Part shown: in pieces, positions 5,951 through 35,149 of the stretch
How the letters are laid out: every line of letters begins with the position of its first letter
Numbering within the stretch: the first letter of the stretch is position 1
Source of the DNA: Nitrospirota bacterium
Lineage (GTDB): Bacteria; Nitrospirota; Nitrospiria; SBBL01; JAADHI01
Length of the DNA stretch: 64,000 nt
Assembly: GCA_029261195.1 (NCBI GenBank)
Contig: JAJDBU010000048.1
Span: 5,814-69,813, forward strand
Reading direction: 5' to 3'
The notes under the pieces: generated by a model
What the model was told of the DNA's origin: nothing
The model's database searches: none
Seen by the model: only the letters and a program-made list of their open reading frames with translations
Position numbers and translations under genes: made by a program

Positions 5951-7402
5951 TTGTCAAATATGGACTACTCAAAGTCATTTTCAGTCGTCGACAGCAAGGC
6001 ATTACTTTTTGAGGGGCAGGCCCTGATGGCCGACCCCATTCACGGTTATATTCCATTCACCGTCTCCTTCGGGAGCCATAAGGAATCGAGCGAAAAAGAT
6101 CTCATCGATTCAAAGTGGATGCAGCGGCTTCGATACATCAATCAATTGCAATCCGCACGCTGGGTTTATCCCTCCGCCGAGCATTCCCGTTTTGTGCATT
6201 CTCTGGGAGCGATGCATGTGGCAGGGCGTTTTGCCAAACATCTCTACCCTTCCTTAAAAGAGGTTGTCCCCAATGTACCCTCTCCGGCATTTATAGAGGC
6301 GCTTCTCCGTGTTTCCGTTTTGCTGCACGACATCGGACATGGCCCCTTTTGTCACTTTTTTGATCACAATTTTCTTAATACCTTTCACCTGAGCCACGAA
6401 AAACTCGGGCAGGAGATTATCCGCAGGGAACTGGGTGTACTGATCAAAGGGATTAGAAGAAGTCCGGGTGGAGCCTTTGCCCCTGGCGAAAGCCTTGATC
6501 CGGAACAGGTCGCCTTTTTAATACATAAAGATCCGGATTATAAAACGCCCCTTGAATATCCGAGATGGCTTGTGATGCTTAAACCGCTTTTTTCAGGCAT
6601 ATTTACGGCCGACAACCTCGACTACGTCCTTCGAGATGCCTTTATGTGCGGGGTTTCAACCGGCCCCATTGATCTTGACCGCCTGATGCACTACAGCTTT
6701 TTTTCCAAAAAAGGACTGACGCTGCATCAAGCGGGGCTTCCGGCATTGACCATGTTTTTAAACGCCCGTGCCTACCTTTATTTTAATGTCTATTATCATC
6801 GCACCACGCGCGCGCTCGACACCCACATGAAAGACATTTTTCGAGCGACGCTTAAAGAAATTTTTCCTTACAACCCACTTGAACGTCTACAGGCCTATGC
6901 CGATTTAACGGATTGGTCGCTTCTGATCAAGGTGAAATCGTGGAAAGCTTCCCGCTCAGCATCACGCCGGGCGCTTTTTAAAGAATGGGAAAAAATCTGG
7001 GGCCGGGATGTAAAGTGGAAGATGGCCTGTGATACGACATTATCGACAAGCGGCTCTGCGGGAAATTCCCGCAGGGTGAAAACCGGGACAGAGCGGATGA
7101 TACACGCAAACCTTCTAAAAAAACGGATGCAGGCCTTGTTGCCGGAGACCTTGAAAGATCTCTCCTTTCGAGTGGATCTTGCCAGCAAAGATCAACGACC
7201 GGACAATCCAATGGAAATGGGTGAACGACAGATCTACGTCTTCAATCCTTCCACCGGGTCCATTTCAAAAGAAGCCTTAAGCGAATTTATCGATGTGGTC
7301 CCGGCGCGTGTCGTCCGCTGCCGAATCTACGCCTTGGACCACGAACACGACGCACTTTTGTCGGAACTTGCCGAAAAGGCGCTGACGGAGATCGGGAGGT
7401 GA
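5951..7402 (+). CDS. HD-domain phosphohydrolase, SAMHD1/dGTPase-like dNTP triphosphohydrolase family
   Basis: 483 aa. Motifs HSRFVHSLGAMHVA, LLHDIGHGPFCHFFD and DNLDYVLRDAFMCG, i.e. the H..HD..D metal motif plus the DxxDYxxRD motif. Confidence 0.8.
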   Translation: MSNMDYSKSFSVVDSKALLFEGQALMADPIHGYIPFTVSFGSHKESSEKDLIDSKWMQRLRYINQLQSARWVYPSAEHSRFVHSLGAMHVAGRFAKHLYPSLKEVVPNVPSPAFIEALLRVSVLLHDIGHGPFCHFFDHNFLNTFHLSHEKLGQEIIRRELGVLIKGIRRSPGGAFAPGESLDPEQVAFLIHKDPDYKTPLEYPRWLVMLKPLFSGIFTADNLDYVLRDAFMCGVSTGPIDLDRLMHYSFFSKKGLTLHQAGLPALTMFLNARAYLYFNVYYHRTTRALDTHMKDIFRATLKEIFPYNPLERLQAYADLTDWSLLIKVKSWKASRSASRRALFKEWEKIWGRDVKWKMACDTTLSTSGSAGNSRRVKTGTERMIHANLLKKRMQALLPETLKDLSFRVDLASKDQRPDNPMEMGERQIYVFNPSTGSISKEALSEFIDVVPARVVRCRIYALDHEHDALLSELAEKALTEIGR

Positions 7403-7407
7403 AGTAT

Positions 7408-8076
7408 TCATCGCATCCTTTCCACAAATCGTGTAATGGCCTCCAGGGGTAAACCGACAGCGGCCAGATAGTCTCCCTTCAATTCCTGAATAAATTGACG
7501 TCCCTCACCTTGCACGGCGTAGGCGCCGGCTTTATCTAGCGGTTCTCCGGTCGCAACGTAGTCCGAAATTTCGCTGTCTGTCATCGACTTCATTTTGACT
7601 TCAATCTTGCAAATCGAGTGTTCCGATCTATCCTGCAAGGTATCAATCATAAAAACTGCCGTCCAGATGCAGTGAGAGCGTCCCTGTAAACCCTGCAAAA
7701 TCTGCTTTGCCTCTTCCGGATTTTTTGGTTTACCGATTTTTTGTTGGTCGCATTCAATGAGGGTGTCGCTCCCGATGACAATGGCATTTTTAAAATCTTG
7801 GGCATTTTTAAAATCTTGGGCCACGGATCGCGCCTTGCCCTCTGCGAAATGGATTGCTTCTTCTTTTGGGGATAATGCCGGATTTGAGATTTCTTCAAAA
7901 CGGGGCGACACAACGCGAAAAGGGATTTGAAGCCGGGAAAGAATCTCCCTGCGTCTCGGAGAGTTTGAGGCCAGAATCAATTCAGTGGAGGTGAGGTTTG
8001 GCTCTTTTTTTAGATCCTGCATTCCGATTTCAGTCCAGGAACGGTCAGCCTGCTTCCTTTCAACTCCGCCACCCAA
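7408..8076 (-). CDS. maf: Maf-like nucleoside triphosphate pyrophosphatase (likely true start MQDLKK at 8022)
   Basis: LILASNSPRRREIL, GSDT, GKP and AGAYAVQG motifs. Contains an in-frame QDFKNA duplication. Confidence 0.85.
   Translation of the reverse strand: MGGGVERKQADRSWTEIGMQDLKKEPNLTSTELILASNSPRRREILSRLQIPFRVVSPRFEEISNPALSPKEEAIHFAEGKARSVAQDFKNAQDFKNAIVIGSDTLIECDQQKIGKPKNPEEAKQILQGLQGRSHCIWTAVFMIDTLQDRSEHSICKIEVKMKSMTDSEISDYVATGEPLDKAGAYAVQGEGRQFIQELKGDYLAAVGLPLEAITRFVERMR
7783..7818. repeat. Perfect 18-bp tandem duplication (GGCATTTTTAAAATCTTG x2) inside maf
   Basis: Read directly: 7783-7800 is identical to 7801-7818. It encodes QDFKNA twice on the minus strand. Confidence 0.95.
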
Positions 8077-8172
8077 TCCTCATGGTCATCAAGATGATCC
8101 CCCCTGCCCCCCTTAATAAGGGGGGCGCTTTTATAACAGAATGCTTTTGTAGCAGGCCGGTCCCTAAAGCCC

Positions 8173-8360
8173 GTTTAAATTTCCCTGAATTTCGACCTTT
8201 CCCAACAAGCAACACCCTCCTCTTCCACCCCCCTTATCAAGGGGGGATCGCGTTCCAACCCTCTATCAGCGAGGCATCCTTTCCGACCCTCCTGCAAAGG
8301 GCGAACTCATACAGACCGTTTCAAGTTTCAATCCTCTATCAGCGAGGCATCCTTTCCGAC
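8173..8360 (-). CRISPR. Mini CRISPR array: 3 repeats (36, 36 and ~34 nt) and 2 spacers (37 and 45 nt)
   Basis: Repeat A is 8325-8360. Repeat B is 8252-8287 and has 2 mismatches. Repeat C is 8173-8206 and is strongly degenerate. The minus-strand consensus GTCGGAAAGGATGCCTCGCTGATAGAGGATTGAAAC ends in the canonical ATTGAAAC crRNA 5' tag. An AT-rich leader and the cmr genes lie upstream on the same strand. Confidence 0.75.
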
Positions 8361-8742
8361 AGCACCCCTTTTTTCTCTTTTAGAATCAATGGATTACAAG
8401 GGCCAAAATACAAACCCCCAGTTATCCACAGATAAGTTATTCCTTTGGGAGATACCGCCAAGCACTCAATATCACTTTTCATCATATTATTCAAGACTTT
8501 ATACAAAAGTACAAAGCTATGCCTAAAATCACCTCCTTTCAGAATTCTTCTAAATTTCAGAATTAGAGTGATATATAAATATTTTAGTTTTTCAAACCTC
8601 CATTACTACAAAATATCGCTACCCACAACTCAATATCTCTAATAACGCTGCTAAAACGGGTTGTGATCAAAAATGACAACATCTCCAGTAACAGGTGATG
8701 TTTAAATTAGCTTAACCGCCTTTCACATAAAATAATAAGGAA
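8361..8742 (-). promoter_or_regulatory. Putative CRISPR leader (AT-rich, non-coding)
   Basis: About 380 nt of AT-rich sequence between the effector stop (8743) and the intact first repeat. Repeat degeneracy increases away from this side. Confidence 0.45.
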
Positions 8743-9492
8743 TTACATTAAAAGAGGAGTGTACATTTCTCCGGCACTGGCCTCCTTGCCTTGTAAATCC
8801 TTGCGATATTCCATAAAAACCACATTGTCCATGACATGCACGAGGTTCGCCGCCAGCAAGGGGAGCACGTTGTCCGGAAGTCCACAAAACAGGTAGACAC
8901 GACGAACACCGTTTTCAGTATGGATTCGCAATAGCAAAGCAACGACATTCTTCACGTAGCCCATCAACTGCTCGTTTGTGTCAAAGGTTTCATCCTTTAG
9001 CCAAATCGGACGGGCTTTCATGTTCATTGCTTTCATATAGTCGAGTACATTCAGCAGATACTTCTCCTGACTTACAAGGATGAGTGCTACAGTATCCAAT
9101 CTCTCTTCTGAAGTAATAGGAGTGATCTGTTTATGGGAAAACTCGCATTGGGCGTCTCCTCCGATGAGTGGGGTACGGCGTTCCTGGGCTTCGTTGTTGA
9201 ATATGGTGCCGTAACGCGCATTGTGACAAAAAAGGCGGGCGGATGTGCTCCGGTTGAACAGACGACAACCGAGGAAAAAGAAAAACGCCAATTGGGCATT
9301 CCCGACAATGTGGATCTCTCTTGGGTCTGGACCCGCCAAATTCCCCATGGCCGTAGACAAGGCGGATTGCATTGTTGAGCAAAGCATCCGCCATTTGTCG
9401 CCATACAGGGTCTCATGATCGCTACGAATACCAAGGCAGGGGCGTTCAAGTTGGACAAATTTTCTGGAATGCCTAGAGGTTCCTCGCTCCGT
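8743..9492 (-). CDS. SAVED/CARF-like sensor module (frame open 9492-8743; first ATG at 9387); apparent C-terminal half of a frameshifted TIR-sensor effector
   Basis: Two Rossmann-like lobes share the pattern hydrophobic strand, Gly/Pro, helix: REIHIVGNAQLAFFFFLGCRL and RRVYLFCGLPDNVLPLLAANLV. This is as expected for a two-lobed SAVED domain. The frame is open upstream of its ATG and overlaps the TIR ORF tail. Confidence 0.5.
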   Translation of the reverse strand, partial: TERGTSRHSRKFVQLERPCLGIRSDHETLYGDKWRMLCSTMQSALSTAMGNLAGPDPREIHIVGNAQLAFFFFLGCRLFNRSTSARLFCHNARYGTIFNNEAQERRTPLIGGDAQCEFSHKQITPITSEERLDTVALILVSQEKYLLNVLDYMKAMNMKARPIWLKDETFDTNEQLMGYVKNVVALLLRIHTENGVRRVYLFCGLPDNVLPLLAANLVHVMDNVVFMEYRKDLQGKEASAGEMYTPLLM

Positions 9493-9992
9493 TTACCGGC
9501 AGTGCCCCGCTGATCTATATATATAATGATCGTTCGCTGACTTGGAATTTCTAATGTCGTGTAGACCCGGCGTGCCAGTTCATCGGCAATATGTACCGCA
9601 TCGGAAGACTCAATCCCAAGTCGGGTAACCCGCGTACCGCGGTGATCTAGCCATCTACTACGCAAAAGAGTGTGGGATTTGACCAGTTTATAACGGTCGC
9701 CGAGGTATATCGGGACGATGATTTCTTTACCCCATTTTTTTTCCTTTTCCAGGGCAATCTCAAGCTCATCCTGAACCCATGGAGACTTTATTGCCTGTTC
9801 TGAAAGAAATACGGTGAAGGTTGTTTGACGTGCGATGGCCTCTTCCAATACTTTGTCCATGGCCGCACCCGCCACAAAGTCGTTCTTGTCCAACCACGCA
9901 ATAATCCCTCGCCGCCCCAATTCATGTGCTACGGTTTCAACAAGGGCTTTGTTAGCAGAGTTGTGGGACAAAAAAGTCGAGGCGTATTTCAT
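9087..9992 (-). CDS. TIR-domain protein (only the first ~185 aa look like genuine protein; the rest is an out-of-frame tail)
   Basis: The N-terminus FLSHNSANKALVETVAHELGRRGIIAWLDKNDFVAG...FTVFLSEQAIKSPWVQDELEIAL matches the TIR layout, including the conserved Glu after W. The ATG overlaps the cmr6 stop (ATGA at 9989-9992). The tail from about aa 190 is Cys/Pro/Trp-rich nonsense. Confidence 0.75.
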   Translation of the reverse strand: MKYASTFLSHNSANKALVETVAHELGRRGIIAWLDKNDFVAGAAMDKVLEEAIARQTTFTVFLSEQAIKSPWVQDELEIALEKEKKWGKEIIVPIYLGDRYKLVKSHTLLRSRWLDHRGTRVTRLGIESSDAVHIADELARRVYTTLEIPSQRTIIIYIDQRGTAGKRSEEPLGIPENLSNLNAPALVFVAIMRPCMATNGGCFAQQCNPPCLRPWGIWRVQTQERSTLSGMPNWRFSFSSVVVCSTGAHPPAFFVTMRVTAPYSTTKPRNAVPHSSEETPNASFPINRSLLLLQKRDWIL

Positions 9993-11110
9993 GATTGATC
10001 TATCTCCTTGTGTTTGAAAATGAATTTGTATGCCATTTTTTCATTCTGAATGGATGAATGTTCCCAGCTATGTATGAGTTCGCCATAAACCTTGATCACT
10101 TGCTCCAGATAAACAGGCCACAAATCTCCCTGTTTTTTCTTGGTCTTGGCACGGTTCTTCCCTAGCATTTTCGCAAGTTCCTCTGGATTCAGTTTCTTCA
10201 CTTCATCCGCAACCCATTCATCATCCGACATGGAGGCACGTTCAACTCTTTCAAGAATTTTCCTCCGCTCATTTTTGTCTTCATCTGGCATGTGTCCATA
10301 GCCCACCGCCGTCTTGGCCCCCGCGCCAAGCCATTCAAGCGCGCTTTTCAATGCCTTCATGACCTTCAATAATTCTTCGGCACATTCTTTCCCGTTGCGG
10401 GGCGCCACAGGAAACATAAATTTCGGCTTGTCTGCAACTAAAAAAGGAATAGGAACGGGGCTGTGCCAATCGGCAGGGGTGACTTTCTGGTCCAGGGGGT
10501 TTTCACCCCCCTTTTCGTACCATTCGTCCATGTGTGGTGTCATGATATCGGCCTTGAGTGTCACCGGTTCAAGCGGTAAGGCATCGAAAAAAATAAAGGC
10601 ACCGGCTTTATTGTCGTTGTCACATTTTTTTGGATCTTTGTCTTCGCTGCCGAACCAGCGATGCAGTTTGTGATTGTCTCTCCTTTCTTTCCACTCCCCT
10701 TCCAACCAGGCACGAAGTAAACCCTTGACCGCTGCACCTGGAATGTAAGGAACACCCAATGTCGGGTGCCAGAGGAAGCCGTTTTCAACCGGGTGGGGAT
10801 TGCCCAGGCCGGTGGCGAAATGCCATGAGCCGGTAGCAATATGAATATCACCTTTCCGAAAATGGCAGAGCATTGCGAGCCGATCCGTGGCCTTCTGCAA
10901 GGCCTCCTTTTCTCCGACATCTTTTTCAACAGTGCTAATCCATGCTCGTTTTCCGTCAGTGGTACCCCTGTGTTTGTCTTCGACATAGACCTGCCATTGC
11001 TCGTCATACTGATTGAAGAAGCGGTCGTACCACAGGCCATGATGCCTATTGTCAAACACGGGAGGGGCTTCCCGCATTTCCTTATAGAGCGGCGGATTTG
11101 GCGGGTTCAT
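9989..11110 (-). CDS. cmr6: Type III-B RAMP protein Cmr6 with ~99-aa C-terminal extension (track ORF extends to 11143)
   Basis: GLGNPHPVENGFLWHPTLGVPYIPGAAVKGLLRAW and the G-rich loop GAGAKTAVGYGHM. The likely start is MNPPNPP at 11110. Confidence 0.85.
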   Translation of the reverse strand: MNPPNPPLYKEMREAPPVFDNRHHGLWYDRFFNQYDEQWQVYVEDKHRGTTDGKRAWISTVEKDVGEKEALQKATDRLAMLCHFRKGDIHIATGSWHFATGLGNPHPVENGFLWHPTLGVPYIPGAAVKGLLRAWLEGEWKERRDNHKLHRWFGSEDKDPKKCDNDNKAGAFIFFDALPLEPVTLKADIMTPHMDEWYEKGGENPLDQKVTPADWHSPVPIPFLVADKPKFMFPVAPRNGKECAEELLKVMKALKSALEWLGAGAKTAVGYGHMPDEDKNERRKILERVERASMSDDEWVADEVKKLNPEELAKMLGKNRAKTKKKQGDLWPVYLEQVIKVYGELIHSWEHSSIQNEKMAYKFIFKHKEIDQS

Positions 11111-11504
11111 TTTTCTTCTCCTCCTCAATAAAGGCCTTTGCAAACTTTTTTATCCAGTCGAGTAGCAGAAGTGCTTCGGCTTGTGCCTGACGGTAGTGGT
11201 GCATATCTTTGGTGGTAATCCCTATCATGAGATTATCCAGTCCGGCATAGGGCTGTCCCGGTTTCTTCATCCAGTCGGAAAGCAATTCGTAAAGCGCATT
11301 ATAAGCAGGGTTCCCTTTTTCGCCCGATCCCTTGCTCAAATAATACGCCGCCGCTTGTCCCAACCCATTCATCCGAATCATGGCCGGGAAATTTTGTGCA
11401 TAGCTTTTATATTCTTTTTGATTAAGATCTTTACTGTCTTTTTCCTTTACTTCCTCTACTTTATCCAGTGCATATTTAGCGCGCTTCTGCTGCATCGTCT
11501 GCAT
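11082..11504 (-). CDS. cmr5: Type III-B small subunit Cmr5
   Basis: 140 aa. The FPAMIRMNGLGQAAAYYLSKG motif is typical of Cmr5, and the gene sits between cmr4 and cmr6. Confidence 0.75.
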   Translation of the reverse strand: MQTMQQKRAKYALDKVEEVKEKDSKDLNQKEYKSYAQNFPAMIRMNGLGQAAAYYLSKGSGEKGNPAYNALYELLSDWMKKPGQPYAGLDNLMIGITTKDMHHYRQAQAEALLLLDWIKKFAKAFIEEEKKNEPAKSAAL

Positions 11505-11506
11505 GG

Positions 11507-12430
11507 CTATGCTCCTTTCGCCTCAACAATTTCAACAGCGCACCAGCCCATACCCACGGTTTCGTTACCGCCCAGTTGCAGATAGGGTTTATTGTCTCCC
11601 GTGAACAAGTCTAGTACGCATTTCCTTATACCCTTAGCGTCAAGGGCTTTATCCTGCTCGTCCTTTTTCGCCTTGCGCGAATTATTCGCAAGCAAGGGCA
11701 CATAAAGCAGGGTTTCGGGCGGGAGCGTTTCTTCGTACCACAACGCGCCATCTTGGGTCGTTTTGGTATCCGAATTCAACGCAATGTGCGCATTAACCGG
11801 GACGGCCGCCTGAGTCAGGTGGGTAAACATCGTGTCGGAAACAATGACCAATCGTTTTTTTAATTCGTCCTCGGCCTCGGTTCTCTCCATCAATTTGGCG
11901 AGATCCGTGGCGCACTTTTCGAGCTCACCTTTTTTCTCAATAAGCGTAAATCGATACTCCTCCAGAAAAAGATAACCTGTTCCCTCTGAGACGATGGCTT
12001 CGTCATCTTTTAAATCGGGTTTCGGTGGGTCAAAGCTGAAGTCATTTCCCAAGTCCATGCGTTTTGCATCCCGTTTTAATCTTTCCAATGCCCCGCTGCA
12101 AGTCACCCATTTGAAGGTGCCGGTCAAGGAACGCACCGGCAAAAGCAGCAGCCTGGCATCTCCGGCGGCGATGGCTCCGGCATTGGCGTCGGCGTTCTTT
12201 GTCTCCGGACCAAATGTAACCAAAACCTCGTCACGATCCTGATCTTTGCCATACACCTCCTCCGCTTTATCCCGCAAAGCACCTTTGACGGCGGAGCCGA
12301 ACACACAGGGCCAGCCATTGTGACCTTCGCGCTGAATGGGTAGGTCTACTCCGCTGACGGAACTACCCGCTCCGGCATGTAGACTGCTTTCTGTCAACAG
12401 GCCCAACAGGGCCGTTGCTTGGTTTTTCAT
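11507..12430 (-). CDS. cmr4: Type III-B backbone RAMP/target RNase Cmr4
   Basis: LTESSLHAGAGSSVSGVDLPIQREGHNGWPCVFGSAVKGALR, with the catalytic Asp context VDLPIQRE present. C-terminal G-rich GGNETVGMGW. Confidence 0.9.
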   Translation of the reverse strand: MKNQATALLGLLTESSLHAGAGSSVSGVDLPIQREGHNGWPCVFGSAVKGALRDKAEEVYGKDQDRDEVLVTFGPETKNADANAGAIAAGDARLLLLPVRSLTGTFKWVTCSGALERLKRDAKRMDLGNDFSFDPPKPDLKDDEAIVSEGTGYLFLEEYRFTLIEKKGELEKCATDLAKLMERTEAEDELKKRLVIVSDTMFTHLTQAAVPVNAHIALNSDTKTTQDGALWYEETLPPETLLYVPLLANNSRKAKKDEQDKALDAKGIRKCVLDLFTGDNKPYLQLGGNETVGMGWCAVEIVEAKGA

Positions 12431-13620
12431 ACTTTTCCTCCTAAATAGTCAGTGGGGAATTCGTTTGAGTTCCACAATCCACAAGCGATGACACCACGTC
12501 CGAACTTCCGATCTTCTCCGATGTATTTACCCTGCAAAACATCAATGGCCTTAGCGATGTTACCGTCATCTACCGCACAGTAATAGCTACTACCGGACGG
12601 AATTAAACTTTGCACATCGCGCGGTTTGCGTTTGAGCATGTTCCATCCTCCCTCGCGCTGCGCTTTTCCGAGCACGGCGGCATGTAAGGTAAGAGCAATA
12701 CCCTCAATGACCCCCTGCCAAACATGCACGCCCTTAAGCTCCTTTAACTTGAAGCCTTCTGGTAGCCAATTGCCCTCTTCGTTCTTAAATCGTGCCGGGC
12801 TCAGCAGGATCAGAATCAATCCCTGTGTTGCTGTTTTGTTTACTTCCGGTTTTGCGGGTGGTTTCGGAAGGCCTAGAGAAGAAATTGCCGCAATGCGTCC
12901 TTCGCCTCCTAAGCGTACGATGCGGTTCTCGATTTCCACTCCATTCAGACCGGAAATATCGACCTCGATAGCCAGACCGGATTTCGGGCGAATATGGCAG
13001 GTTTGATAGAGCAAACTGTTTTCTACTGTGCGTGTGCTGTTGTCTCGTGCAATGCCTAAGCGTGGTTCCCTGCTGAGCAGAGTTTGCTCCGTGTGTAGTT
13101 CTTTAATACCCGGCAGACTACCCATTAATATTTTTTCAAGTCCACTTCGGGTAAGCCATGCACCTTTGATTGACCTGTAGCCTTTCGCTCTTTCAGGTAT
13201 TTCAGGCAAATAAACCCTTCCAATATGCGTTTCCATGGCAGTACCGATACGCAGTCGGGCTAAAAGGTTCTGGCCTTTTTCTTCTCGGTGCATTAGAAAA
13301 AGAGGTAAGGGATAAAGGCGTTCACCATTTAGTGACAAGCAAAGTCCATCAAGGCTGAGATTGCCTAAATTATCGGCATAGCCAATCATTTCACGCAGCT
13401 TTCGTCCATCAGGCAGTGCATAGTCTACATTGTCTCGAAATTGATTCCAGTCCGCACCCAGTGCATCGCCGATGGCCGTGCGTAAAGCCCCCAGTACGGT
13501 ACGTGGCGACGGAGGGAAAACGCTGATCAGTTCTGTACCCCCTATGGTGTCGAAGGGGCGTGACTCACGGAAGAACAAAGTATCAAGCGGTGTCAGACAT
13601 AATCTTTTGATTGTGCTCAT
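12427..13620 (-). CDS. cmr3: Type III-B Cmr3 (start MSTIKRL at 13620; track ORF extends to 13734)
   Basis: The LCLTPLDTLFFRESRPFD motif. The ATG overlaps the cas10 stop (ATGA at 13617-13620). Confidence 0.85.
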   Translation of the reverse strand: MSTIKRLCLTPLDTLFFRESRPFDTIGGTELISVFPPSPRTVLGALRTAIGDALGADWNQFRDNVDYALPDGRKLREMIGYADNLGNLSLDGLCLSLNGERLYPLPLFLMHREEKGQNLLARLRIGTAMETHIGRVYLPEIPERAKGYRSIKGAWLTRSGLEKILMGSLPGIKELHTEQTLLSREPRLGIARDNSTRTVENSLLYQTCHIRPKSGLAIEVDISGLNGVEIENRIVRLGGEGRIAAISSLGLPKPPAKPEVNKTATQGLILILLSPARFKNEEGNWLPEGFKLKELKGVHVWQGVIEGIALTLHAAVLGKAQREGGWNMLKRKPRDVQSLIPSGSSYYCAVDDGNIAKAIDVLQGKYIGEDRKFGRGVIACGLWNSNEFPTDYLGGKV

Positions 13621-15494
13621 CGTTCCACCCCTTTCTTTGCCAAAAAACGTACTAGCAGCGCACCATCCGCTTCGAGATGTTTTGATTCCCATGCATCTAT
13701 TGTTTTTGTTTTGTCTCGTACACGGGGACGGCATTGTTCAAGAAGCTGCTTCACAATCACCCTTGCCTCTTCCATTGACTTCACCATTGCCATGAGCGAG
13801 ATGGCTTGCTCATCTTTAAGAACGGGTTCCAACAATTCCTTCTCCTTGTCTTTGCCGGGATTAAGCAGATCAAAGCGTTCTCTGATTCGGTAGAAAAATT
13901 TGCTGGAGAAATGTCCTTGTTTCCCTTCGGATTGATCATTTTTCTGAAAGTCTGCTGCCAGTCTCTCTACAACGACGTTGCAATCTTCAAGGGCAATCTG
14001 CCAGGGCTGAGCCCACTCCACTGTCATGCCACCCGGCTTCCAGACACGGCAGGCAAGCGCATCACGCCCCCGCCCCTCCTTCGCCACCTTGTCGAGCAAA
14101 TCGTGTGCATCCAGTAAAACCTTGCCCAGCGGCATCTTGGCGTGGGCATATTCAATGGCGGCAGAAATAGAAGTGATAATGGCTGAGGTGGCAAAACAGC
14201 CCATGTAATGTCTGCGTAAAGCCGCAGCACAATTCAGTGCATCTTCCAGGGGCAGCAACACCAGCACGTCATCTCCGCCAGCGTAGATCAGAAAGCCGTT
14301 GTGCTTATTCACAATGCTAGGAATCTCCTTGGTAAACTCCGCCAACCCGGTAGCGATCGCCTGCTGTTTATCGGGCACACGCATTTGAAGCCCCAACTCG
14401 TCACCATCCATTAGCAGTACGGTATAGAACGGAGAAGGCGGATCAAGCTTGGCTTCACCGCGAACTTTCTTAAGTTTGCTCAGAACCTCTGTTGCCTGCT
14501 TCTCTTGTTTGTCCCAAAGATTCTTATTCTCCAGCATGGCATCGAAGAAGACCGTACCATCCAGCGCTTTCCATTGTTTGTGACCGTCCGCATCCTGGAC
14601 ACAACGGATGTTGGATTTCCACTCACCATAGTTTCCGGTCAGCTTATGAGCAGCGTTGTGGAAGTCCCACAATCCCGTAGACACCTCTTCGTTTTCGTTT
14701 GCCTTTTCAATCAATTGCGCTAACCAGGGTGCAACAGCCATGTAATGCACCGAGGGGACGCCACTAGGTAGTTCCCAGCCATTGACCATCCAATTCCCCG
14801 GCATTTTTTCGCTGACGTCTTTGAAGCAGCGCGAGAAGCGCCGCTTTACGAAGGCGATTGCACAGAGTTTTTCACCGGGGCGCAGGTCTGTTTTTATGCC
14901 ATCTTGACCTAACTCACGTACATTGTCCCAAAAACTATTTCCTTTCTTACCGGGACGCTCGGTTCCTGAAAGTTCCTGCCAACCGTCCATCATCATGCAC
15001 TTCACACCCGGTTCGTCCGGTGGCAGGTGGCTGCGCATATTTTTCAAGCGGTCCAGGGTATTGGTCGCATCTTTATTTTTCACTATCGCCCACTCAATAT
15101 CCCAAAATGCGGAAATCTGTCGATTCCAAATTATTTTGGTTTTATTATTCTCAAGCCTGTGAAGGTCATGCTCCCAAACCTTTTCGCTTAATACCGTCCA
15201 TGCCATTTTCACGGCATCCACAACTTCTGTGGCTTCAAATTTATCATCGACTTCAGCCATAAACCGGTTTGGGATGCTGCCTTGTTTCGGACCTTTGCCG
15301 CCTTTTCGAATGGCCTCCATGAATTTTGCATCCGGTTTCGGAAAAACAACATTTCCGCCCTGTTGTTGAACTGCCCTCATGGCAACTGCTGAAAGCCACG
15401 ACAAGATAAACGAACCCGCCCAAAAATCCCGCGTCCGCCGCGCCTGCGAAACAAAGCCCTGAACAGGGCCTATGGTGAAGTGGAAGTATTTCAT
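13617..15494 (-). CDS. cas10: Cas10/Cmr2, short form without N-terminal HD domain; cyclase GGDD motif intact
   Basis: 625 aa. It starts directly with MKYFHFTIGPVQGFVSQARRTRDFWAGSFILSWL. Palm motifs are VLLMDGDELG and FLIYAGGDDVLVLLP. No H..HD..D segment precedes them. Confidence 0.9.
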   Translation of the reverse strand: MKYFHFTIGPVQGFVSQARRTRDFWAGSFILSWLSAVAMRAVQQQGGNVVFPKPDAKFMEAIRKGGKGPKQGSIPNRFMAEVDDKFEATEVVDAVKMAWTVLSEKVWEHDLHRLENNKTKIIWNRQISAFWDIEWAIVKNKDATNTLDRLKNMRSHLPPDEPGVKCMMMDGWQELSGTERPGKKGNSFWDNVRELGQDGIKTDLRPGEKLCAIAFVKRRFSRCFKDVSEKMPGNWMVNGWELPSGVPSVHYMAVAPWLAQLIEKANENEEVSTGLWDFHNAAHKLTGNYGEWKSNIRCVQDADGHKQWKALDGTVFFDAMLENKNLWDKQEKQATEVLSKLKKVRGEAKLDPPSPFYTVLLMDGDELGLQMRVPDKQQAIATGLAEFTKEIPSIVNKHNGFLIYAGGDDVLVLLPLEDALNCAAALRRHYMGCFATSAIITSISAAIEYAHAKMPLGKVLLDAHDLLDKVAKEGRGRDALACRVWKPGGMTVEWAQPWQIALEDCNVVVERLAADFQKNDQSEGKQGHFSSKFFYRIRERFDLLNPGKDKEKELLEPVLKDEQAISLMAMVKSMEEARVIVKQLLEQCRPRVRDKTKTIDAWESKHLEADGALLVRFLAKKGVER

Positions 15495-16801
15495 GGCAAC
15501 ACCTCCTTCCTATCGGGGAAGCGATCTTTCTTGGTTTCAGGAATTCCAATCTTGCCATCGAGAAAATTGGTGATGACCTTCCATGCATTAATATTCAGGT
15601 CAACATGGTTGCCGCCGGCATTGATCTTCTCCCCGTTTGGCAGGAAGGGTGATTTCAGGAAGACGCTGACACCGATATAGTTCTTATCACTTAAGCGGTG
15701 AACGTGAAAGAACAACGGGCTGGCACGGCGTTCATGCGTTGCTGCATTCACTTTGTTTTCATTGCTGTCGTAGTTGTGAGGGAGTCCAAACACAATTCGT
15801 TCGGGATGAAAATTCGGGTATTTTGACCGGAATGGTGGCACCTTTCTGAACCAGTGATGGTCATCTTTGAATCTCATTTCGGATTTCTTGCCACTGGGAA
15901 GAATATTACTTCTTCTTGGGTTTGTTTTCGTCTTTCCCCAACTGCGGTAGTCCAGCATTCTCAGTCCAAACTCGTCCAACACCTTGTAAGGCGAACTTTC
16001 CGAGAGCAGGTAATCTACGCGACTCTCTTTCGAGAAGGCCGAGTATTCTGGTTGAGGCACGTCAGAAAGATTGAGAAGTAACTGCTTAACCTCACTTTGG
16101 TATTTTTCTTGGGTAGTGGGGGCAGTCCATGTTTCTTTTTCCTCTTTTTTATCACAAACCATTTTTTCCAAGGCGATACTACCCATACCATGACGGGAAC
16201 GGCTGCCTAAACCACCCAACAGTCCAAACATTTTGAGTGCAGCTAGAACAGATTCGTCAACTTGCTTGCGAAAAGCCAGAGTAACAGTGAAGATTTGATT
16301 TTCATTCAGACAACCGCGCTCCAGCTGACCAGCCTTCCTCTTTATTTCTCCAGTATTTCTATTTACACTTGTGAACGCCGTTATCAAACCGTAACCAAGA
16401 TAACGGGCAGCGGCCAGATGATTTTCATCCGGCATTCTATTCCCATGTTGGTTTGTCTTTTGTCTGGTCGGCTTGAAGCTCGTGTGGACAGTATCTTCCT
16501 CTGTTTTTTTGGGCTCATTATGCCTAACGGTCATCAAAAATGTCCCTTGCCCACCAAGCGGTTTGCCTTTTTTTGTTTTCGCCGAAAGACCAAACAGCCG
16601 CCCCTCTTCCTTGTGAAGTGCCTTCAGCGCATTAGTCTCATCTTGTTCTTGTTTATAAAACCGCCCCCAGTTCAAGGCCCGCCACCAAAACCGCAAGGCC
16701 CCTTTCACCGAAGGAGGCCGTATCCCATCGTCTGGTGTTTGATCCGCACCGCCAATGAACATCGGCGTCACAATTCGAAATGTCGCTTCCAGCTTTTCCA
16801 T
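15491..16801 (-). CDS. cmr1: Type III-B RAMP protein Cmr1
   Basis: FRIVTPMFIGGADQTPDDGIRPPSVKGALRFWWRAL, plus GGLGSRSRHGMGS as the G-rich loop. Its stop overlaps the cas10 start. Confidence 0.85.
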   Translation of the reverse strand: MEKLEATFRIVTPMFIGGADQTPDDGIRPPSVKGALRFWWRALNWGRFYKQEQDETNALKALHKEEGRLFGLSAKTKKGKPLGGQGTFLMTVRHNEPKKTEEDTVHTSFKPTRQKTNQHGNRMPDENHLAAARYLGYGLITAFTSVNRNTGEIKRKAGQLERGCLNENQIFTVTLAFRKQVDESVLAALKMFGLLGGLGSRSRHGMGSIALEKMVCDKKEEKETWTAPTTQEKYQSEVKQLLLNLSDVPQPEYSAFSKESRVDYLLSESSPYKVLDEFGLRMLDYRSWGKTKTNPRRSNILPSGKKSEMRFKDDHHWFRKVPPFRSKYPNFHPERIVFGLPHNYDSNENKVNAATHERRASPLFFHVHRLSDKNYIGVSVFLKSPFLPNGEKINAGGNHVDLNINAWKVITNFLDGKIGIPETKKDRFPDRKEVLP

Positions 16802-16883
16802 CCTTTCCTCCCTTCTTGATGCATATATACGATTTAAGCTATATTATATATACTCAATTAAAACAGGATCAGGAGACCCCCTC

Positions 16884-17123
16884 ATGAAAACCCTCATTGA
16901 TATCAACGAAACACTCCTTGAAAAAGCGATGGCCCTCTCCCAGACCAAAACGAAGAAGGAAACAGTCCATCGGGCCTTGGAGGCCTTCGTCAAACTCCGG
17001 CAACGGGAGCGCTTAAAGGAGATGGCCGGAAGCGGGGCAATCGAATGGCGTCTTGACGACCTGAAGGCTGCAAGGCACCGAAGAGAAAAAACGCAGACCC
17101 GACTCATGAAAGACGGGCAATGA
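16884..17123 (+). CDS. vapB: VapB-family antitoxin (DUF2191-like)
   Basis: 79 aa, MKTLIDINETLLEKAMALSQTKTKKETVHRALEAFV. AGGAG lies 8 nt upstream. The stop overlaps the vapC ATG (ATGA at 17120-17123). Confidence 0.65.
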   Translation: MKTLIDINETLLEKAMALSQTKTKKETVHRALEAFVKLRQRERLKEMAGSGAIEWRLDDLKAARHRREKTQTRLMKDGQ

Positions 17124-17527
17124 ATCAAAGGCAGGTTTTTGTGGATACCAGCGCATGGATCTGTTTCTTCGCTCGAAAAGGCTTTGCGGAGATCAAGCAG
17201 GCCATTGGCACGCTCCTCGACGAAAACCGGGTGGCGGTCGCGGGGCCGGTTGTCATTGAGTTGCTTCAAGGATGCCGAAATGTGCAGAAAAAAACGACTA
17301 TCGAAGGCTGTCTTCAGGGGCTTCAATGGCTTCCGATCAAGGATCATCACTGGTCTTATGCTGCGCAACTGGCCTTCGACCTTCGCAGAAAAGGAATTAC
17401 AGTTTCCGCGATGGATGTGCTTATCGCAAGTGTCACCATCGACACCGATTGCCTCCTCCTTCACCGGGATCGTGACTATGACTTCATCAGCGAGCACTTC
17501 CCCGAACTGAAGCATTACAAGTTTTAG
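17120..17527 (+). CDS. vapC: PIN-domain toxin VapC
   Basis: 135 aa. VFVDTSAWICFF (the first PIN acidic residue), followed by the later D/E positions and HRDRDYDF at the C-terminus. Confidence 0.8.
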   Translation: MNQRQVFVDTSAWICFFARKGFAEIKQAIGTLLDENRVAVAGPVVIELLQGCRNVQKKTTIEGCLQGLQWLPIKDHHWSYAAQLAFDLRRKGITVSAMDVLIASVTIDTDCLLLHRDRDYDFISEHFPELKHYKF

Positions 17528-17537
17528 CAATCCGCGC

Positions 17538-18440
17538 TCATTCCGGTTTTGCATTGACCTCATACCGCCCCATCCCAAAGGTCGCTCCTTTTCCGACATG
17601 CACCCCTTCCCCCAACTTCAAAAATGGGAGAAAAGACGTTAAATCGCCTTCAAAGACAATCTCCCCGACAAACCCACCTTGCGGGATGCTCTGTCCTTGC
17701 CGCCGGGAATAGCGCTCTTTGTCAACCCAGCGCAAGTTTCTAGAGACGACGCGAATTTCTTCTATATGAGAAGGAATCTTTAATGGAACAATCTCTTCCT
17801 GGTTTGTCCCATGAAAGTACCTCAGGTTTTCGATCCGTCGAAGGAGGGTCCGAAACAAGAGGGCAAAGTCGATCGCTTCGCTTGGCCGCCCCTTTACAAC
17901 AATCCGGGTTGGCGTCAGAAAGCGAACTGTGATCTTGCGACATTCCGTGACCGGTTTTTGATCAAGCTGTAGGGGCTGGACTTCCTTGATTTTAAAATTT
18001 CCTCTCCCCATGCCAATGCCGCGTTCCCCTAGTACCTCAAAAGCCCGAATGAAATACGGGAGGTAGGAGACGGCCTTTCCAATCAAAATCAGACCAATCG
18101 TCATCTTCTCCCCCGGTTCATAGGTCAGCTTTTCCCCCAGCGGCGGTTCAATGACGAAAGGACGCGGAACGGCTTTTCCTTTTGCCATGCGTGTCTTATT
18201 TATTGGATGTGGCGTCTCAAAAATATAGGGATAGGCACAGACCCGGAAGAGTGTGCATTCTGGGCATGGGGTGCGAGGGATGTTGCAGCAGACCGCTTTC
18301 AAGGCATTGCCGAAACCCCCTCGAAGCGTTGAGCCGCTATTTTCAGAAAGGGAGATCGCAGTGATGGGCAGCAAACTAAGCTGATATGAAGAAACAGAGA
18401 GTAAGGTCTCTGTTTCTAGAACAAGATTTTCTCCGATCAT
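17538..18440 (-). CDS. cas6: Cas6-family pre-crRNA endoribonuclease (RAMP)
   Basis: 300 aa. STLRGGFGNALK, a Cys-rich CPECTLFRVCAYPYIFE segment and the C-terminal G-rich loop HVGKGATFGMGRY. Confidence 0.8.
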   Translation of the reverse strand: MIGENLVLETETLLSVSSYQLSLLPITAISLSENSGSTLRGGFGNALKAVCCNIPRTPCPECTLFRVCAYPYIFETPHPINKTRMAKGKAVPRPFVIEPPLGEKLTYEPGEKMTIGLILIGKAVSYLPYFIRAFEVLGERGIGMGRGNFKIKEVQPLQLDQKPVTECRKITVRFLTPTRIVVKGRPSEAIDFALLFRTLLRRIENLRYFHGTNQEEIVPLKIPSHIEEIRVVSRNLRWVDKERYSRRQGQSIPQGGFVGEIVFEGDLTSFLPFLKLGEGVHVGKGATFGMGRYEVNAKPE

Positions 18441-18689
18441 CCTGGCCCCTTATTCCGCTGATAAAAAAATCAGAATATCTTGAGGGAGATAACGCATCTT
18501 AAGAAGAGCTGACGCATATATTATTTTTCTTAGTTTGTTTAGTTTGTTTAGCTGTCGAGCAAAGAAACTGGCTGAATCCTATACCGAAGGTGTTTGGCAC
18601 TTTTTGAAGGTTCTTGCAACTATTCCTCGGAAAAGCGTCGTCGGCAAAGGATCTCTCGGTATCGCGAATACATGAACACCAGAATCAAT

Positions 18690-19895
18690 TCAGTAGGGAT
18701 ATCGGACATCACTTGTTTCCTTTGTTTGCAGTGTCACTTTAGAAATCGGGTCGGCTAGAAAATCCTTAATCAAATGCTCTACCTCTAAAGTATCATTGAC
18801 CCGAACCATGAGCGCGCGCAGGGCTTTCGCTCCCTCAAACCCACGACAATAGGAAGCGAGATGTTTTCTCATGCCGGTGAAATAGATCTTCCCGTTCATC
18901 GATTCAAAAAGACGGGCATGTTGAAGGGCAACAGCAAAACGTTCTTGATGGCTGATTGGTTTTTCCGCAATACTCTGGATATCGACTTCGCTGTCGCAGT
19001 CTTCTCCACCGAATTTTCCCTGCTGTTTTAATAAAGCCCGCGTCATTTCTTTGCGATGAAAGATCCAGGGATTACCCATTGCGGCCCGACCGATTAAAAC
19101 GCCATCAACCCCGGTTTCGCAAACACGCTTAAAGATGTCCTGTTGAGAATGCAAGTCGCCGTTTCCCAGGATGAGGGTATCTGAGCCTTGAGCCGCCTCA
19201 ACCGCTTCAGCAATTTTTCCCCAGTCGGCCTCGCCGCGATAAGCCTGTTTCAGGGTACGGCCATGAATTGCAATTGCTACAGGCTCGGCCGTAAGAAGTT
19301 CAGCAATCCATTCCTTCACAACCACCTGAGTCACACCGATGCGGGTTTTGACAGACACAGGAATCGGCCTTTTTATCTCGGATCGGCGGGATTTGTTTTG
19401 TCGCTCAATGTCGGGAAACCAATCCGCCACTTCCGGACAAATTTTAACAATTGAAAGAGGCTCTCCATTGGCCCAATGATCAATCCCTCGCCTCGTTGCT
19501 TCGACGATGGCCTTTGCACGTGCAGCGTCATTAATCAAGGCCGCCCCCGCACCCATGCCACTGACTTTTTTGCTCGGGCAGCCCATGTTGATATCAATGC
19601 CGTCAAAACCCAATTCGCAAACCAACTGGGCAACATGAAAAAAAGGCTCGGGCCTCGGGCCGTAGAGTTGGGCAATTACGGGAGATTCACTTGCATGAAA
19701 GGCAAGTCCCAATAGGGCATTTCTTGCCCCGTGGCAGATGCCGTCTACACTTAAAAATTCAGTCATGATGAGATCCGGCCGCCCGTGAATCGCCATCATG
19801 CGCCTGAAACAGGGATCCGTCACGCCATCCATCGGCGACAGCCCGATAATGGGTTTTTCAAGTTGATGCCAAAAATGTTTGCCTGTTTTAAGCAA
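18690..19895 (-). CDS. dus: tRNA-dihydrouridine synthase family protein with C-terminal extension
   Basis: GLSPMDGVTDPCFRRMM, DINMGCP and a HGRT-type motif (IAIHGRTLKQAYRGEADW). Confidence 0.85.
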   Translation of the reverse strand: MLKTGKHFWHQLEKPIIGLSPMDGVTDPCFRRMMAIHGRPDLIMTEFLSVDGICHGARNALLGLAFHASESPVIAQLYGPRPEPFFHVAQLVCELGFDGIDINMGCPSKKVSGMGAGAALINDAARAKAIVEATRRGIDHWANGEPLSIVKICPEVADWFPDIERQNKSRRSEIKRPIPVSVKTRIGVTQVVVKEWIAELLTAEPVAIAIHGRTLKQAYRGEADWGKIAEAVEAAQGSDTLILGNGDLHSQQDIFKRVCETGVDGVLIGRAAMGNPWIFHRKEMTRALLKQQGKFGGEDCDSEVDIQSIAEKPISHQERFAVALQHARLFESMNGKIYFTGMRKHLASYCRGFEGAKALRALMVRVNDTLEVEHLIKDFLADPISKVTLQTKETSDVRYPY

Positions 19896-31447: not shown

Positions 31448-32124
31448 AGCATAAGGCGGCGTGTTTCGTAAATGAAGCCAATCAAATAACAAAAATCACG
31501 GCTGGATTATTTATCCTGACGGGCTTCGCCTTCTATTTACTGAACAGTCCCTCTGTCTCGGCAAAGGACGATTCACCTGTTGTGACGACCTCATCTCTTA
31601 TGGAAGATATTGATCGTAAGGAAAAGGATCTGGGTCGGGAGGAATTACTCAGTACCTCAGATTCAAACCGGCGGGATATTGATCCAAAAGAAAAGGATTT
31701 GGGCCGGGGAGAGCGTTTAAATACATCCGCAGCGCCCGCACAGGATATCGATCCAAACGAGAAAGATATGGGGCAGGGAGAACCTTTTATCCAGTCAAAT
31801 ACTTTTTTAGTCAATGATCGGGGTACGGACGACAAGACAGAGGAGGCTCAAGTGGGTGACGGTGAAATTCTGCTGGGAAAGGATTTTACGGATGCGATCA
31901 AGGGGAAAAAATTCTCTGAACAGTCTCTACTGAAGACGATCACATTGCAAAAAAATCCGCCCCTCAATGAGGATGAGATTCATTTCAAGAACAATCCGGG
32001 GCTCTTTGTTGAAGGGGAATTTCTGGAAGAGATCAATGCGGCAAAAAGCCCCGAACTCCCGGAAGCTGTCCCATCCGTGCAAGCACAGCGACCCGAGTTT
32101 GATCTTGTGCTACCTGAAAATTAG
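31444..32124 (+). CDS. Membrane-anchored/secreted acidic repeat protein (orfX) inside the curli operon
   Basis: The ATG overlaps the csgE stop (ATGA). Hydrophobic N-terminus, then three tandem DIDxKEKDLGxGE units. No family recognised. Confidence 0.55.
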   Translation: MKHKAACFVNEANQITKITAGLFILTGFAFYLLNSPSVSAKDDSPVVTTSSLMEDIDRKEKDLGREELLSTSDSNRRDIDPKEKDLGRGERLNTSAAPAQDIDPNEKDMGQGEPFIQSNTFLVNDRGTDDKTEEAQVGDGEILLGKDFTDAIKGKKFSEQSLLKTITLQKNPPLNEDEIHFKNNPGLFVEGEFLEEINAAKSPELPEAVPSVQAQRPEFDLVLPEN

Positions 32125-32163
32125 CTTCATCTGAAGCCATCATAAAGATAAGGAGTAAAAGGG

Positions 32164-32601: not shown

Positions 32602-32636
32602 GACCCCGTCTACGATTAGATTAAGGAAATGATTGG

Positions 32637-35128: not shown

Positions 35129-35149
35129 AAGCACTCTGGAGAAGGAACG

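Follow-up and report, generated by a model that had tools for sequence, protein, structure and literature searches.

[quoted passage not shown] Among about 1000 type III loci, the survey of Hoikkala et al. (2024, PMC11229360) reported TIR-SAVED proteins in 7, type III-B ones included, and a PADLOC model (SAVED5--SAVED_TIR, PDLC02012) exists for them. [quoted passage not shown] The HD-less form of Cas10 is the majority state, as an HD domain is present in only 39% of loci. A biochemically characterised member of the CRISPR TIR-SAVED clade without Crn4 was not found in the literature searched.

Several relatives have been characterised. The TIR-SAVED of Microbacterium ketosireducens (PDB 7QQK), from a type II-C CBASS with a CD-NTase, forms a filament that is induced by cA3 and has E84 as its catalytic residue (10.1101/2022.05.04.490601). 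TSR1, a TIR-SAVED-Crn4 protein of a type III-D locus in Arachnia propionica (10.64898/2026.09.16.751991), is an NADase activated by cA3 and the only effector in its locus; its catalytic residue is E86, T189/R190 contact cA3, and its C-terminal Crn4 ring nuclease leads to a self-limiting dimer. Cat1 (PDB 9MUD; PMC12162218) is a type III TIR effector and a cyclic oligoadenylate (cOA)-activated NADase whose sensor is a CARF domain (cA4). The Cmr complex of Pyrococcus furiosus (PDB 3W2V, 4W8Y, 4RDP) comprises Cmr1-6, and its Cmr2 has an N-terminal HD domain.

Here, we compare these systems with a locus in a 64-kb stretch of Nitrospirota DNA, the whole of which is referred to as the window. The locus is very probably a chromosomal type III-B (Cmr) locus with a 19-nt deletion inside the SAVED domain of its effector, a recently decayed copy in which the cOA arm is most likely non-functional. 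It is an ordinary, partly decayed example and not a new system. The initial annotation had stressed that this TIR-SAVED is embedded in a Cmr operon; the survey, the PADLOC model and the characterisation of TSR1 show that such an arrangement is not new. The gene order and identities that it proposed were borne out by Pfam, NCBIfam and PADLOC; reading along the minus strand, the order is cas6, an antisense vapBC pair, cmr1, cas10, cmr3, cmr4, cmr5, cmr6, a TIR ORF, a second ORF, the leader and the array. The cas genes and the toxin-antitoxin pair are as follows:

17538-18440, minus strand: cas6, 300 aa, crRNA-processing endoribonuclease (Pfam CRISPR_Cas6 2.3e-20; NCBIfam cas_cas6 5.6e-11, below cutoff)
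16884-17527, plus strand: vapB and vapC toxin-antitoxin pair (VapB_antitoxin 2.2e-12; PIN 3.8e-09; NCBIfam TA_toxin_VapC 2.2e-29, above cutoff)
15491-16801, minus strand: cmr1, 436 aa (RAMPs 8.4e-15; TIGR01894 5.7e-11, above cutoff)
13617-15494, minus strand: cas10/cmr2, 625 aa (Cmr2_N, residues 3-99; Cas10-Cmr2_palm2 8.9e-32; TIGR02577 3e-40; PADLOC Cas10 3e-70)
12427-13620, minus strand: cmr3, 397 aa, with an ATGA overlap at each end (Pfam Cas_Cmr3 4.3e-61)
11507-12430, minus strand: cmr4, 307 aa, backbone RAMP (TIGR02580 1.3e-62)
11082-11504, minus strand: cmr5, 140 aa (Cas_Cmr5 1.5e-35)
9989-11110, minus strand: cmr6, 373 aa (TIGR01898 5.2e-32, ORF residues 109-285)

The Cmr operon is complete, with the same six-subunit set as the P. 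furiosus complex. The genes are contiguous and Cmr1, Cmr4, Cmr5 and Cmr6 each clear the NCBIfam cutoff; Cmr3 falls just short of it there (98.9 bits, cutoff 100.4) and reaches 4e-61 in Pfam. The ATGA overlaps that had been described at cmr1/cas10, cas10/cmr3, cmr3/cmr4 and cmr6/TIR can all be read directly from the sequence.

Cas10 (TIGR02577, 138.5 bits; cutoff 79.4) was described as lacking the HD domain and keeping the DGD and GGDD motifs, and both points stand. No HD domain was detected in the protein by Pfam, its N-terminus is MKYFHFTIGPVQGF with Cmr2_N beginning at residue 3, and in alignment it matches the start point of the HD-deleted P. furiosus Cmr2dHD construct, so that, unlike PfCmr2, the protein starts after the HD. 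Because cas10 begins where cmr1 ends, with the start and stop codons overlapping, there is no upstream coding space for an HD domain. The cyclase palm is intact, as the conserved MDGDELG and IYAGGDDVLV align with the equivalent motifs of Cmr2dHD. This is an HD-less Cas10 with its cyclase motifs kept, predicted to make cOA. The catalytic Asp context noted for Cmr4 was likewise found, with D29 (SGVDLPIQRE) aligning to D26 of PfCmr4 (VVDQPIQRE), the Asp for target-RNA cleavage. Cmr6 differs from its P. furiosus counterpart in carrying some 95 further C-terminal residues, a tail that follows the GAGAKTAVGYGHM loop and has no Pfam match. This tail had been called unusual, but tails of comparable length are present in 138 of the 150 closest representatives, and by this comparison it is the norm for its clade.

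The effector occupies the 3' end of the operon:

9087-9992, minus strand: TIR ORF, 5' piece of the TIR-SAVED gene (TIR_2 3.9e-20)
8743-9387, minus strand: second ORF, 3' piece of the TIR-SAVED gene, rest of SAVED
8743-9992, minus strand: TIR-SAVED gene, disrupted, in two frames with the switch after residue 189
9425-9429, minus strand: deletion junction, the 19-nt loss lying at about 9426-9428 (intact orthologue, TTCCGCCCCGACCTTGATT; TTC microhomology at the flanks)

The two ORFs had been read as a TIR ORF and a SAVED-like ORF, to be joined in a frame-corrected fusion of 415 aa. The TIR-SAVED identity holds; on comparison with homologues they are pieces of a single TIR-SAVED gene that has lost 19 nt, neither two genes nor one gene with a simple one-base frame error. 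The repaired 416-aa sequence has 62 intact homologues of about 425 aa that span both ORFs over 95-100% of the length (nearest homologue, 82% identity at 100% coverage), and the PADLOC model matches it at 4.1e-34 over residues 3-400. In the TIR ORF, TIR_2 reaches 73 bits (cutoff 28). The position of the catalytic Glu is kept as E76 (E86 in TSR1), where PWVQDELE aligns with the W..EL motif of Cat1, AbTir and Roq1; the motif, E76 included, is at least 90% conserved across the family and is shared with the M. ketosireducens protein. Cat1 is the closest solved TIR by sequence (4e-10 with a single sequence, 8e-19 with a profile); its sensor is CARF and the one here is SAVED.

The window sequence stays below the Pfam gathering score for SAVED (19-21 bits against 26.2), which homologues do pass, and a SAVED-only profile detected none of the solved SAVED proteins by sequence; the grounds for assigning SAVED are therefore the fold, the PADLOC model and those homologues. 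An AF2 model of the intact 82%-identical orthologue (pLDDT 94, pTM 0.92) has as its top PDB match 7qqk_A, the M. ketosireducens TIR-SAVED with cA3, over its full length (E 6e-12, TM 0.65/0.63), followed by Cap4, Cap5, SAVED-CHAT and CalpL. The SAVED-like character of the C-terminal module is thus confirmed at the level of a model of that orthologue. The M. ketosireducens protein is only 15% identical and goes undetected by sequence or profile search, and it sits with a CD-NTase in CBASS whereas the effector here sits in a Cmr operon. The protein and its orthologues (416-432 aa) end 10-15 residues past the last SAVED strand, with no additional C-terminal domain such as the Crn4 ring nuclease; in contrast to TSR1, the window protein ends with SAVED and the locus has no ring nuclease.

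TIR and SAVED are not encoded as one uninterrupted polypeptide in the window, the break being at about residue 189. In the DNA alignment with the two intact orthologues L001 and L002, the window gene has one 19-column gap and no other indels. One frame encodes the TIR and the SAVED strands to residue 189, and another encodes the remaining SAVED and is open to 8743. The orthologue model and the family alignment place the deletion in a loop after strand 185-189, where the invariant F189/R190 context is lost and the frame is shifted. TSR1 contacts cA3 through an Arg at about 190, and the family of the effector here has an invariant R190, an equivalence drawn from numbering and not from alignment. 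The identical junction is present in Logan contig L016 (run SRR15505515), which is 100% identical over 11,778 nt; this is an assembly-level comparison, and one set of reads may underlie both Logan and the NCBI assembly. Lineage-specific amino-acid changes number 21 in the window copy and 28 in its intact sister, and the window copy contains no additional stops. Taken from the alignments, the window TIR-SAVED is a disrupted family member and, unlike the catalogued CRISPR effectors, is frameshifted; its break appears recent and the locus a recently decayed copy. That the downstream SAVED frame is fully open is compatible with an error too, or with a very recent event.

It is unlikely that the organism in fact carries an intact effector and fully working signalling, the 19-nt gap then being a minority allele or an artefact of assembly or sequencing. 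The SAVED frame is open across all 225 codons past the junction, there is no excess of amino-acid changes in the window TIR-SAVED, the remaining cas genes are all intact, the contig is apparently from a shotgun assembly, and there may be a mixed population, or a read-level artefact common to both assemblies. However, the junction recurs in the independent Logan assembly, 100% identical over 11.8 kb, the loss of 19 nt flanked by TTC direct repeats follows the usual pattern of replication slippage and not that of homopolymer or base-calling error, and H116D, D118R and G170E of the window copy alter positions at which the seven other sequences compared do not vary. It is very unlikely that the split gene still works, either because two polypeptides reassemble or because a -1 ribosomal frameshift yields the full-length protein. 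The downstream ORF does have an in-frame ATG at 9387, but this start has no Shine-Dalgarno before it and falls about 13 codons inside helix 204-222, so its product would miss the invariant D160, R162, F189 and R190. Both frames are open at an A-AAT-TTG heptamer upstream of the junction, but this heptamer is also present in intact L001, and slippage there would swap the conserved PALVF strand for unrelated residues. In every such scenario 6 residues, including R190, are absent.

It could also be proposed that the TIR-SAVED is a stray CBASS effector that lies beside the Cmr operon and is unresponsive to Cas10 products, which we consider extremely improbable. The first TIR-SAVED to be characterised came from CBASS (10.1101/2022.05.04.490601), and one such protein can respond to c-di-AMP of the host even in the absence of its cyclase (10.1101/2025.06.19.660554). 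On the other side, the start codon of the effector and the stop codon of cmr6 overlap, in L001 as in the window, and the TIR is closest to the CRISPR effector Cat1 whereas the CBASS prototype is undetectable by sequence. The effector gene is bordered upstream by cmr6 and downstream by the CRISPR leader, and no CD-NTase-like gene was seen beside it. The family lies directly 3' of type III genes in the window, L001, L003-L009 and L011-L014, with L010 as the exception.

The favoured reading remains a type III-B locus with a recently broken effector. A scan of the ORFs of at least 180 aa in 1.2-55.9 kb of the window turned up no further CARF or SAVED effector. Since the TIR-SAVED is the only signal-activated effector found and is split by the deletion, in both assemblies, the cOA arm is most likely non-functional here, and the initial proposal of immunity through cOA-to-TIR signalling fails for this copy. 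The signalling arm is most likely dead, and crRNA-guided RNA cleavage by Cmr4 would be the sole activity still encoded intact. This view covers 64 kb of the genome, and an effector or array elsewhere could use the signal of this Cas10. The flanks of the window are housekeeping genes, and no cas1 or cas2 was found in the window.

An intact system, as modelled on characterised relatives, would begin with Cas6 cutting the repeat to give a crRNA that keeps a 5' tag of ...ATTGAAAC, on which Cmr1-6 and Cas10 would assemble. Binding of a complementary transcript would lead Cmr4 (D29) to cut the RNA and the Cas10 palm (GGDD) to make cOA, the HD DNase being absent here. The cOA, most likely cA3, would be held between the SAVED domains of the TIR-SAVED encoded at the operon 3' end, and its binding would drive head-to-tail assembly, presumably by the same logic as in the M. 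ketosireducens protein, and so complete a composite TIR active site (E76). The active TIR would then deplete NAD+ and arrest the infected cell. By analogy with the M. ketosireducens protein and TSR1, cA3 is most likely the ligand of this family; the survey tentatively suggests cA4 for CRISPR-linked TIR-SAVED (PMC11229360).

The leader and a minimal array complete the locus:

8361-8742, minus strand: CRISPR leader, with long blocks conserved between it and its counterpart in the orthologous locus L001
8252-8360, minus strand: minimal CRISPR array of two 36-nt repeats and one 37-nt spacer
8325-8360, minus strand: repeat 1, GTCGGAAAGGATGCCTCGCTGATAGAGGATTGAAAC
8288-8324, minus strand: spacer, 37 nt
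8252-8287, minus strand: repeat 2, 2 mismatches

The repeats end in ATTGAAAC and a Cas6 is encoded (2e-20). The array had been described as decaying; its two repeats and one spacer were recovered, and no further repeat copies were found within the window. A third, degenerate repeat, implied by a start at 8173, is unsupported, as it scores 14 against 13.2 +/- 2.2 for shuffled sequence. In the leader alignment with L001 the mean column identity is 85%, a figure that includes the array repeats and spacer, and the L001 array, of the same repeat family, has at least 4 repeats. Cas6 is at or near the equivalent end of the related loci L003, L004, L007, L009 and L014, in the opposite orientation in L003 and L004. 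The vapBC pair is inserted between cas6 and cmr1 in antisense, convergent with cas6 and divergent from cmr1, and its gene calls on the Logan contig are the same as those in the window.

The gene order read on the minus strand in the initial annotation was borne out by the ORF listing and by profile searches, from which the cas and cmr coordinates below are taken. The full set of Cmr genes is present, followed by two ORFs that belong to a single broken effector gene (8743-9992, minus strand):

17538-18440, minus strand, cas6
16884-17527, plus strand, vapB/vapC, between cas6 and cmr1
15491-16801, minus strand, cmr1
13617-15494, minus strand, cas10/cmr2 (625 aa)
12427-13620, minus strand, cmr3
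11507-12430, minus strand, cmr4
11082-11504, minus strand, cmr5
9989-11110, minus strand, cmr6
9087-9992, minus strand, TIR ORF (301 aa)
8743-9387, minus strand, second ORF (214 aa), in another frame and overlapping the TIR ORF

The 4-nt overlaps claimed at cmr1/cas10, cas10/cmr3, cmr3/cmr4 and cmr6/TIR were found as ATGA at all four junctions, and the effector is thus coupled to the cmr operon. At 11078-11115 the cmr5 stop lies 9 codons further on than in L001 (the closest related locus, which is orthologous), so that cmr5 and cmr6 overlap by 29 nt in the window and by 4 nt in L001; the difference may come from the length of the A-run before the cmr6 ATG. The vapBC pair is antisense to its neighbors, with the vapC stop 10 nt from the cas6 stop (convergent) and the vapB start ~80 nt from the cmr1 start (divergent), and its insertion therefore leaves cas6 transcriptionally separate from the cmr operon. 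It is absent at the corresponding site in L004, the locus of Candidatus Nitrotoga sp. M5. Promoter-like sites were at background in the promoter scan (12 versus 10.8 +/- 2.9 in shuffles), terminator-like sites exceeded the shuffles in the terminator scan (23 versus 13.6 +/- 3.8) with none of the 23 defining an operon boundary, and an Rfam scan of 7000-19000 returned 0 matches.

The description of Cas10 as an HD-less protein with a GGDD palm held up. Cmr2_N begins at residue 3, the N-terminus aligns with that of the P. furiosus Cmr2 construct from which HD was deleted, and no HD domain was found in a Pfam profile search of the 625-aa protein; nor can one be encoded upstream, because the cmr1 stop overlaps the cas10 start. 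The cyclase motifs MDGDELG and IYAGGDDVLV align with MDGDDMG and IYAGGDDVLA of PfCmr2. An HD-less, cyclase-positive Cas10 is the usual state among type III loci, as a recognisable HD domain is found in only 39% of 1113 such loci (PMC11229360). The catalytic Asp reported for Cmr4 is present as D29, which aligns with the catalytic D26 of PfCmr4.

When the TIR ORF and the second ORF are joined where the frame switches, the resulting 416-aa sequence is matched over 95-100% of its length by 62 proteins of ~405-460 aa; the nearest two are 82% and 75% identical. The PADLOC model SAVED5--SAVED_TIR matches residues 3-400 of this sequence (4e-34). The Pfam SAVED model is sub-threshold in the repaired window sequence (19-21 bits versus 26.2); it is recorded for many homologues and was above threshold in two that were rescanned. 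P0001, the intact orthologue that is 82% identical, was modelled with a 53-sequence alignment (pLDDT 94.2, pTM 0.92), and a Foldseek search of this model against the PDB placed 7QQK, the Microbacterium ketosireducens TIR-SAVED bound to cA3, at the top over the full length (E 6e-12, TM 0.65/0.63, 15% identity), followed by Cap4, Cap5, SAVED-CHAT, a viral SAVED ring nuclease and CalpL. The SAVED fold assigned to the C-terminal module is therefore confirmed on the intact orthologue. A SAVED-only profile search of the PDB found no SAVED protein and returned chance-level matches only. In characterised TIR NADases, catalysis depends on the Glu of the W..EL motif. Here the motif is kept, its Glu (E76) shows at least 90% conservation across the family, and it aligns with the same motif in Cat1, AbTir and Roq1, so that the catalytic Glu is in place; published examples of this Glu are known as E84 in the M. 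ketosireducens protein (10.1101/2022.05.04.490601) and as E86 in TSR1, the TIR-SAVED-Crn4 of an Arachnia propionica III-D system (10.64898/2026.09.16.751991). By sequence, the closest TIR domain is that of the CRISPR effector Cat1 (8e-19), whereas the CBASS prototype TIR-SAVED is undetectable.

A stray CBASS gene is one reading of the effector, and the genomic context of the family argues against it. Type III genes lie directly upstream of TIR-SAVED in 13 of the 14 loci examined, the exception being L010, where the upstream region gave only a pentapeptide-TIR-like match. In L001 the order is cmr3-cmr4-cmr5-cmr6-TIR-SAVED with the 4-nt cmr6/effector overlap of the window; the leader is the same too, and the array has at least 4 repeats. 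In L004 a full cmr1-6 set precedes TIR-SAVED. The gene follows III-A csm1-5 operons in L006, L007 and L014, and probably in L009 and L011 as well; it follows III-D-like multi-RAMP/Csx19 operons in L005, L008 and L012 (the last with RT-Cas1-Cas2), and in L013 it accompanies a short-Cas10 module. The effector is read as part of the Cmr operon, and the system is of an already known kind to which the window adds one more member.

Several of these loci have further features. A ~585-aa pentapeptide-repeat plus TIR gene lies between csm5 and TIR-SAVED in L014 (8175-9932) and L006 (~8341-9174), so that these III-A loci encode two tandem TIR proteins. L003, from Candidatus Nitrotoga sp. BS, carries at 7654-9918 only the C-terminal half of a Cmr6 (a 157-aa ORF with the tail). 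This ORF immediately follows a 596-aa RAMP belonging to a csm-like module and precedes TIR-SAVED, and two Cas2-like segments lie downstream; the arrangement resembles that of a recombinant or hybrid type III locus. Some homologues carry extra domains: TIR-SAVED-CHAT (P0043, 626 aa), CHAT-TIR-SAVED (P0029 and P0054, the latter with no SAVED match returned), FGE-sulfatase-TIR-SAVED (P0026), EAD8-TIR-SAVED (P0044) and TIR-SAVED-EAD5 (P0050). Coupling of TIR and CHAT effectors to a single SAVED sensor may be previously undescribed.

The annotation as type III-B Cmr with a TIR-SAVED effector was essentially right, but the effector of the window is broken by a deletion. DNA alignment with the intact genes of L001 and L002 revealed exactly one indel, a 19-nt gap in the window (~9426-9428) where L001 has TTCCGCCCCGACCTTGATT; TTC is found on both flanks and the junction left in the window reads GGTATTCGTAGC. 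This is the signature of a microhomology-mediated deletion and not of a base-calling error. An assembler error is also unlikely because an independent Logan assembly (run SRR15505515) has the same junction, its contig being identical to the window over 11,778 nt in a comparison of assemblies rather than of reads. Gapped-pattern and exact-pattern searches of metagenome contigs for an intact allele of the same lineage gave 0 matches. Lost with the deletion are the six residues RPDLDF plus one base, from the loop that follows SAVED strand 185-189 in the P0001 model. R190 is among them; like F189, it is the same in all 53 family members compared. TSR1 contacts cA3 through an Arg that also carries the number 190 (10.64898/2026.09.16.751991), and the shared numbering, rather than an alignment, suggests that the two are equivalent. 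Translation of the 301-aa ORF would yield the TIR domain and the first two SAVED strands, followed by 112 residues read out of frame; the first ATG of the downstream ORF falls within helix 204-222. A programmed frameshift or a function as a split protein was rejected on sequence grounds. The deletion looks recent: the downstream SAVED frame is still open, and the window copy has 21 lineage-specific substitutions versus 28 in its intact sister, three of the 21 (H116D, D118R and G170E) being in otherwise invariant columns. The window effector is a fresh pseudogene.

In an intact system of this type, by analogy with characterised relatives, target RNA binding would cause Cas10 to make cyclic oligoadenylate (cOA), which would be sandwiched between SAVED domains and so drive a head-to-tail assembly that completes the TIR active site, leading to NAD+ depletion (10.1101/2022.05.04.490601, 10.64898/2026.09.16.751991). 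Both characterised TIR-SAVEDs respond to cA3, which would most likely be the ligand here too; one survey has tentatively suggested cA4 for those linked to CRISPR (PMC11229360). We consider it quite unlikely that this TIR-SAVED is a functionally distinct effector, using another cOA such as cA4 or an assembly unlike the cA3 filament or the dimer that the two characterised proteins form, and that its loss with Cmr intact reflects selection against a costly NADase rather than neutral decay. In this genome the signalling arm is most likely dead, and the only activity still encoded is most likely RNA cleavage by Cmr4, guided by one spacer. The locus and its intact orthologues enlarge the small group of type III loci with a TIR-SAVED NADase as the sole cOA effector, and the window provides a clean example of an effector lost through a microhomology deletion while the RNA-targeting complex is kept. 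With a broken effector and a single spacer in its array, the window copy is poorly suited to experiments; better starting points are the intact orthologues P0001 and, from Candidatus Nitrotoga, P0003 and P0006, with which the activating cOA and the mode of assembly could be worked out for a CRISPR TIR-SAVED without a fused ring nuclease (Crn4).

Two 36-nt repeats (GTCGGAAAGGATGCC...) make up the array, one at 8325-8360 and the other, which has two mismatches, at 8252-8287; a single 37-nt spacer lies between them, and no further repeat copies were found in the 64-kb window. A third, degenerate repeat at 8173-8206, from which the locus had been taken to start, was rejected, as its local alignment score of 14 is not distinguishable from chance (13.2 +/- 2.2 in shuffles). 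An exact search of viral contigs for the protospacer gave 0 matches. The 382-nt leader shares long conserved blocks with that of L001. A 19-nt GC-rich palindrome, CCCCCCTT(AAT/ATC)AAGGGGGG, occurs at 8107-8125 and 8228-8246, 121 nt apart and one copy 5 nt from the terminal repeat; it occurs nowhere else in the window (chance expectation 0.05), and may be a terminator or a trace left by an element that shortened the array.

The tail of Cmr6 (9989-10270), which had been called unusual, follows the rule of its clade. The ~95 aa after the GAGAKTAVGYGHM loop are conserved in L001 and L002 and align weakly with the Nitrotoga tails; no Pfam match was found in the tail and a word-based search of it returned nothing. 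In an exhaustive search, 138 of the 150 closest Cmr6 representatives (P0067-P0216) reach 338 aa or more, and at least 60 aa follow the C-terminal Gly-rich loop in 134 of the 147 with the loop motif (median 115 aa). Extensions in the clade are 60-130 aa, poorly conserved in sequence and without a Pfam model. A special feature or an effector-docking element was rejected, the tail being a clade trait with no specific link to TIR-SAVED.

The locus is flanked by housekeeping genes, maf and an HD-domain protein on one side and dus and a PAS-GGDEF-EAL protein on the other. The ORF scan covered 1.2-55.9 kb with a minimum length of 180 aa (seven ORFs lie beyond it, from 55.9 kb to the window end). The genes in this range include thyX, htrA, the curli genes csgE and csgG, and glmM, and none is cas1, cas2, a ring-nuclease gene or another CARF or SAVED gene. 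The Maf-like gene (maf, 7408-8076, minus strand) contains, at 7783-7821, a perfect, in-frame 18-nt tandem duplication of GGCATTTTTAAAATCTTG (2.2 copies), which encodes the duplicated peptide AQDFKNAQDFKNA. A curli-type amyloid secretion cluster at 30563-36361 (plus strand), with a csgE-like gene, csgG and two curlin-repeat proteins, has no relation to the CRISPR locus. The 513-aa ThyX ORF at 26681-28222 (plus strand) has two separate Thy1-domain matches, which suggests a tandem-duplicated, double-domain ThyX.
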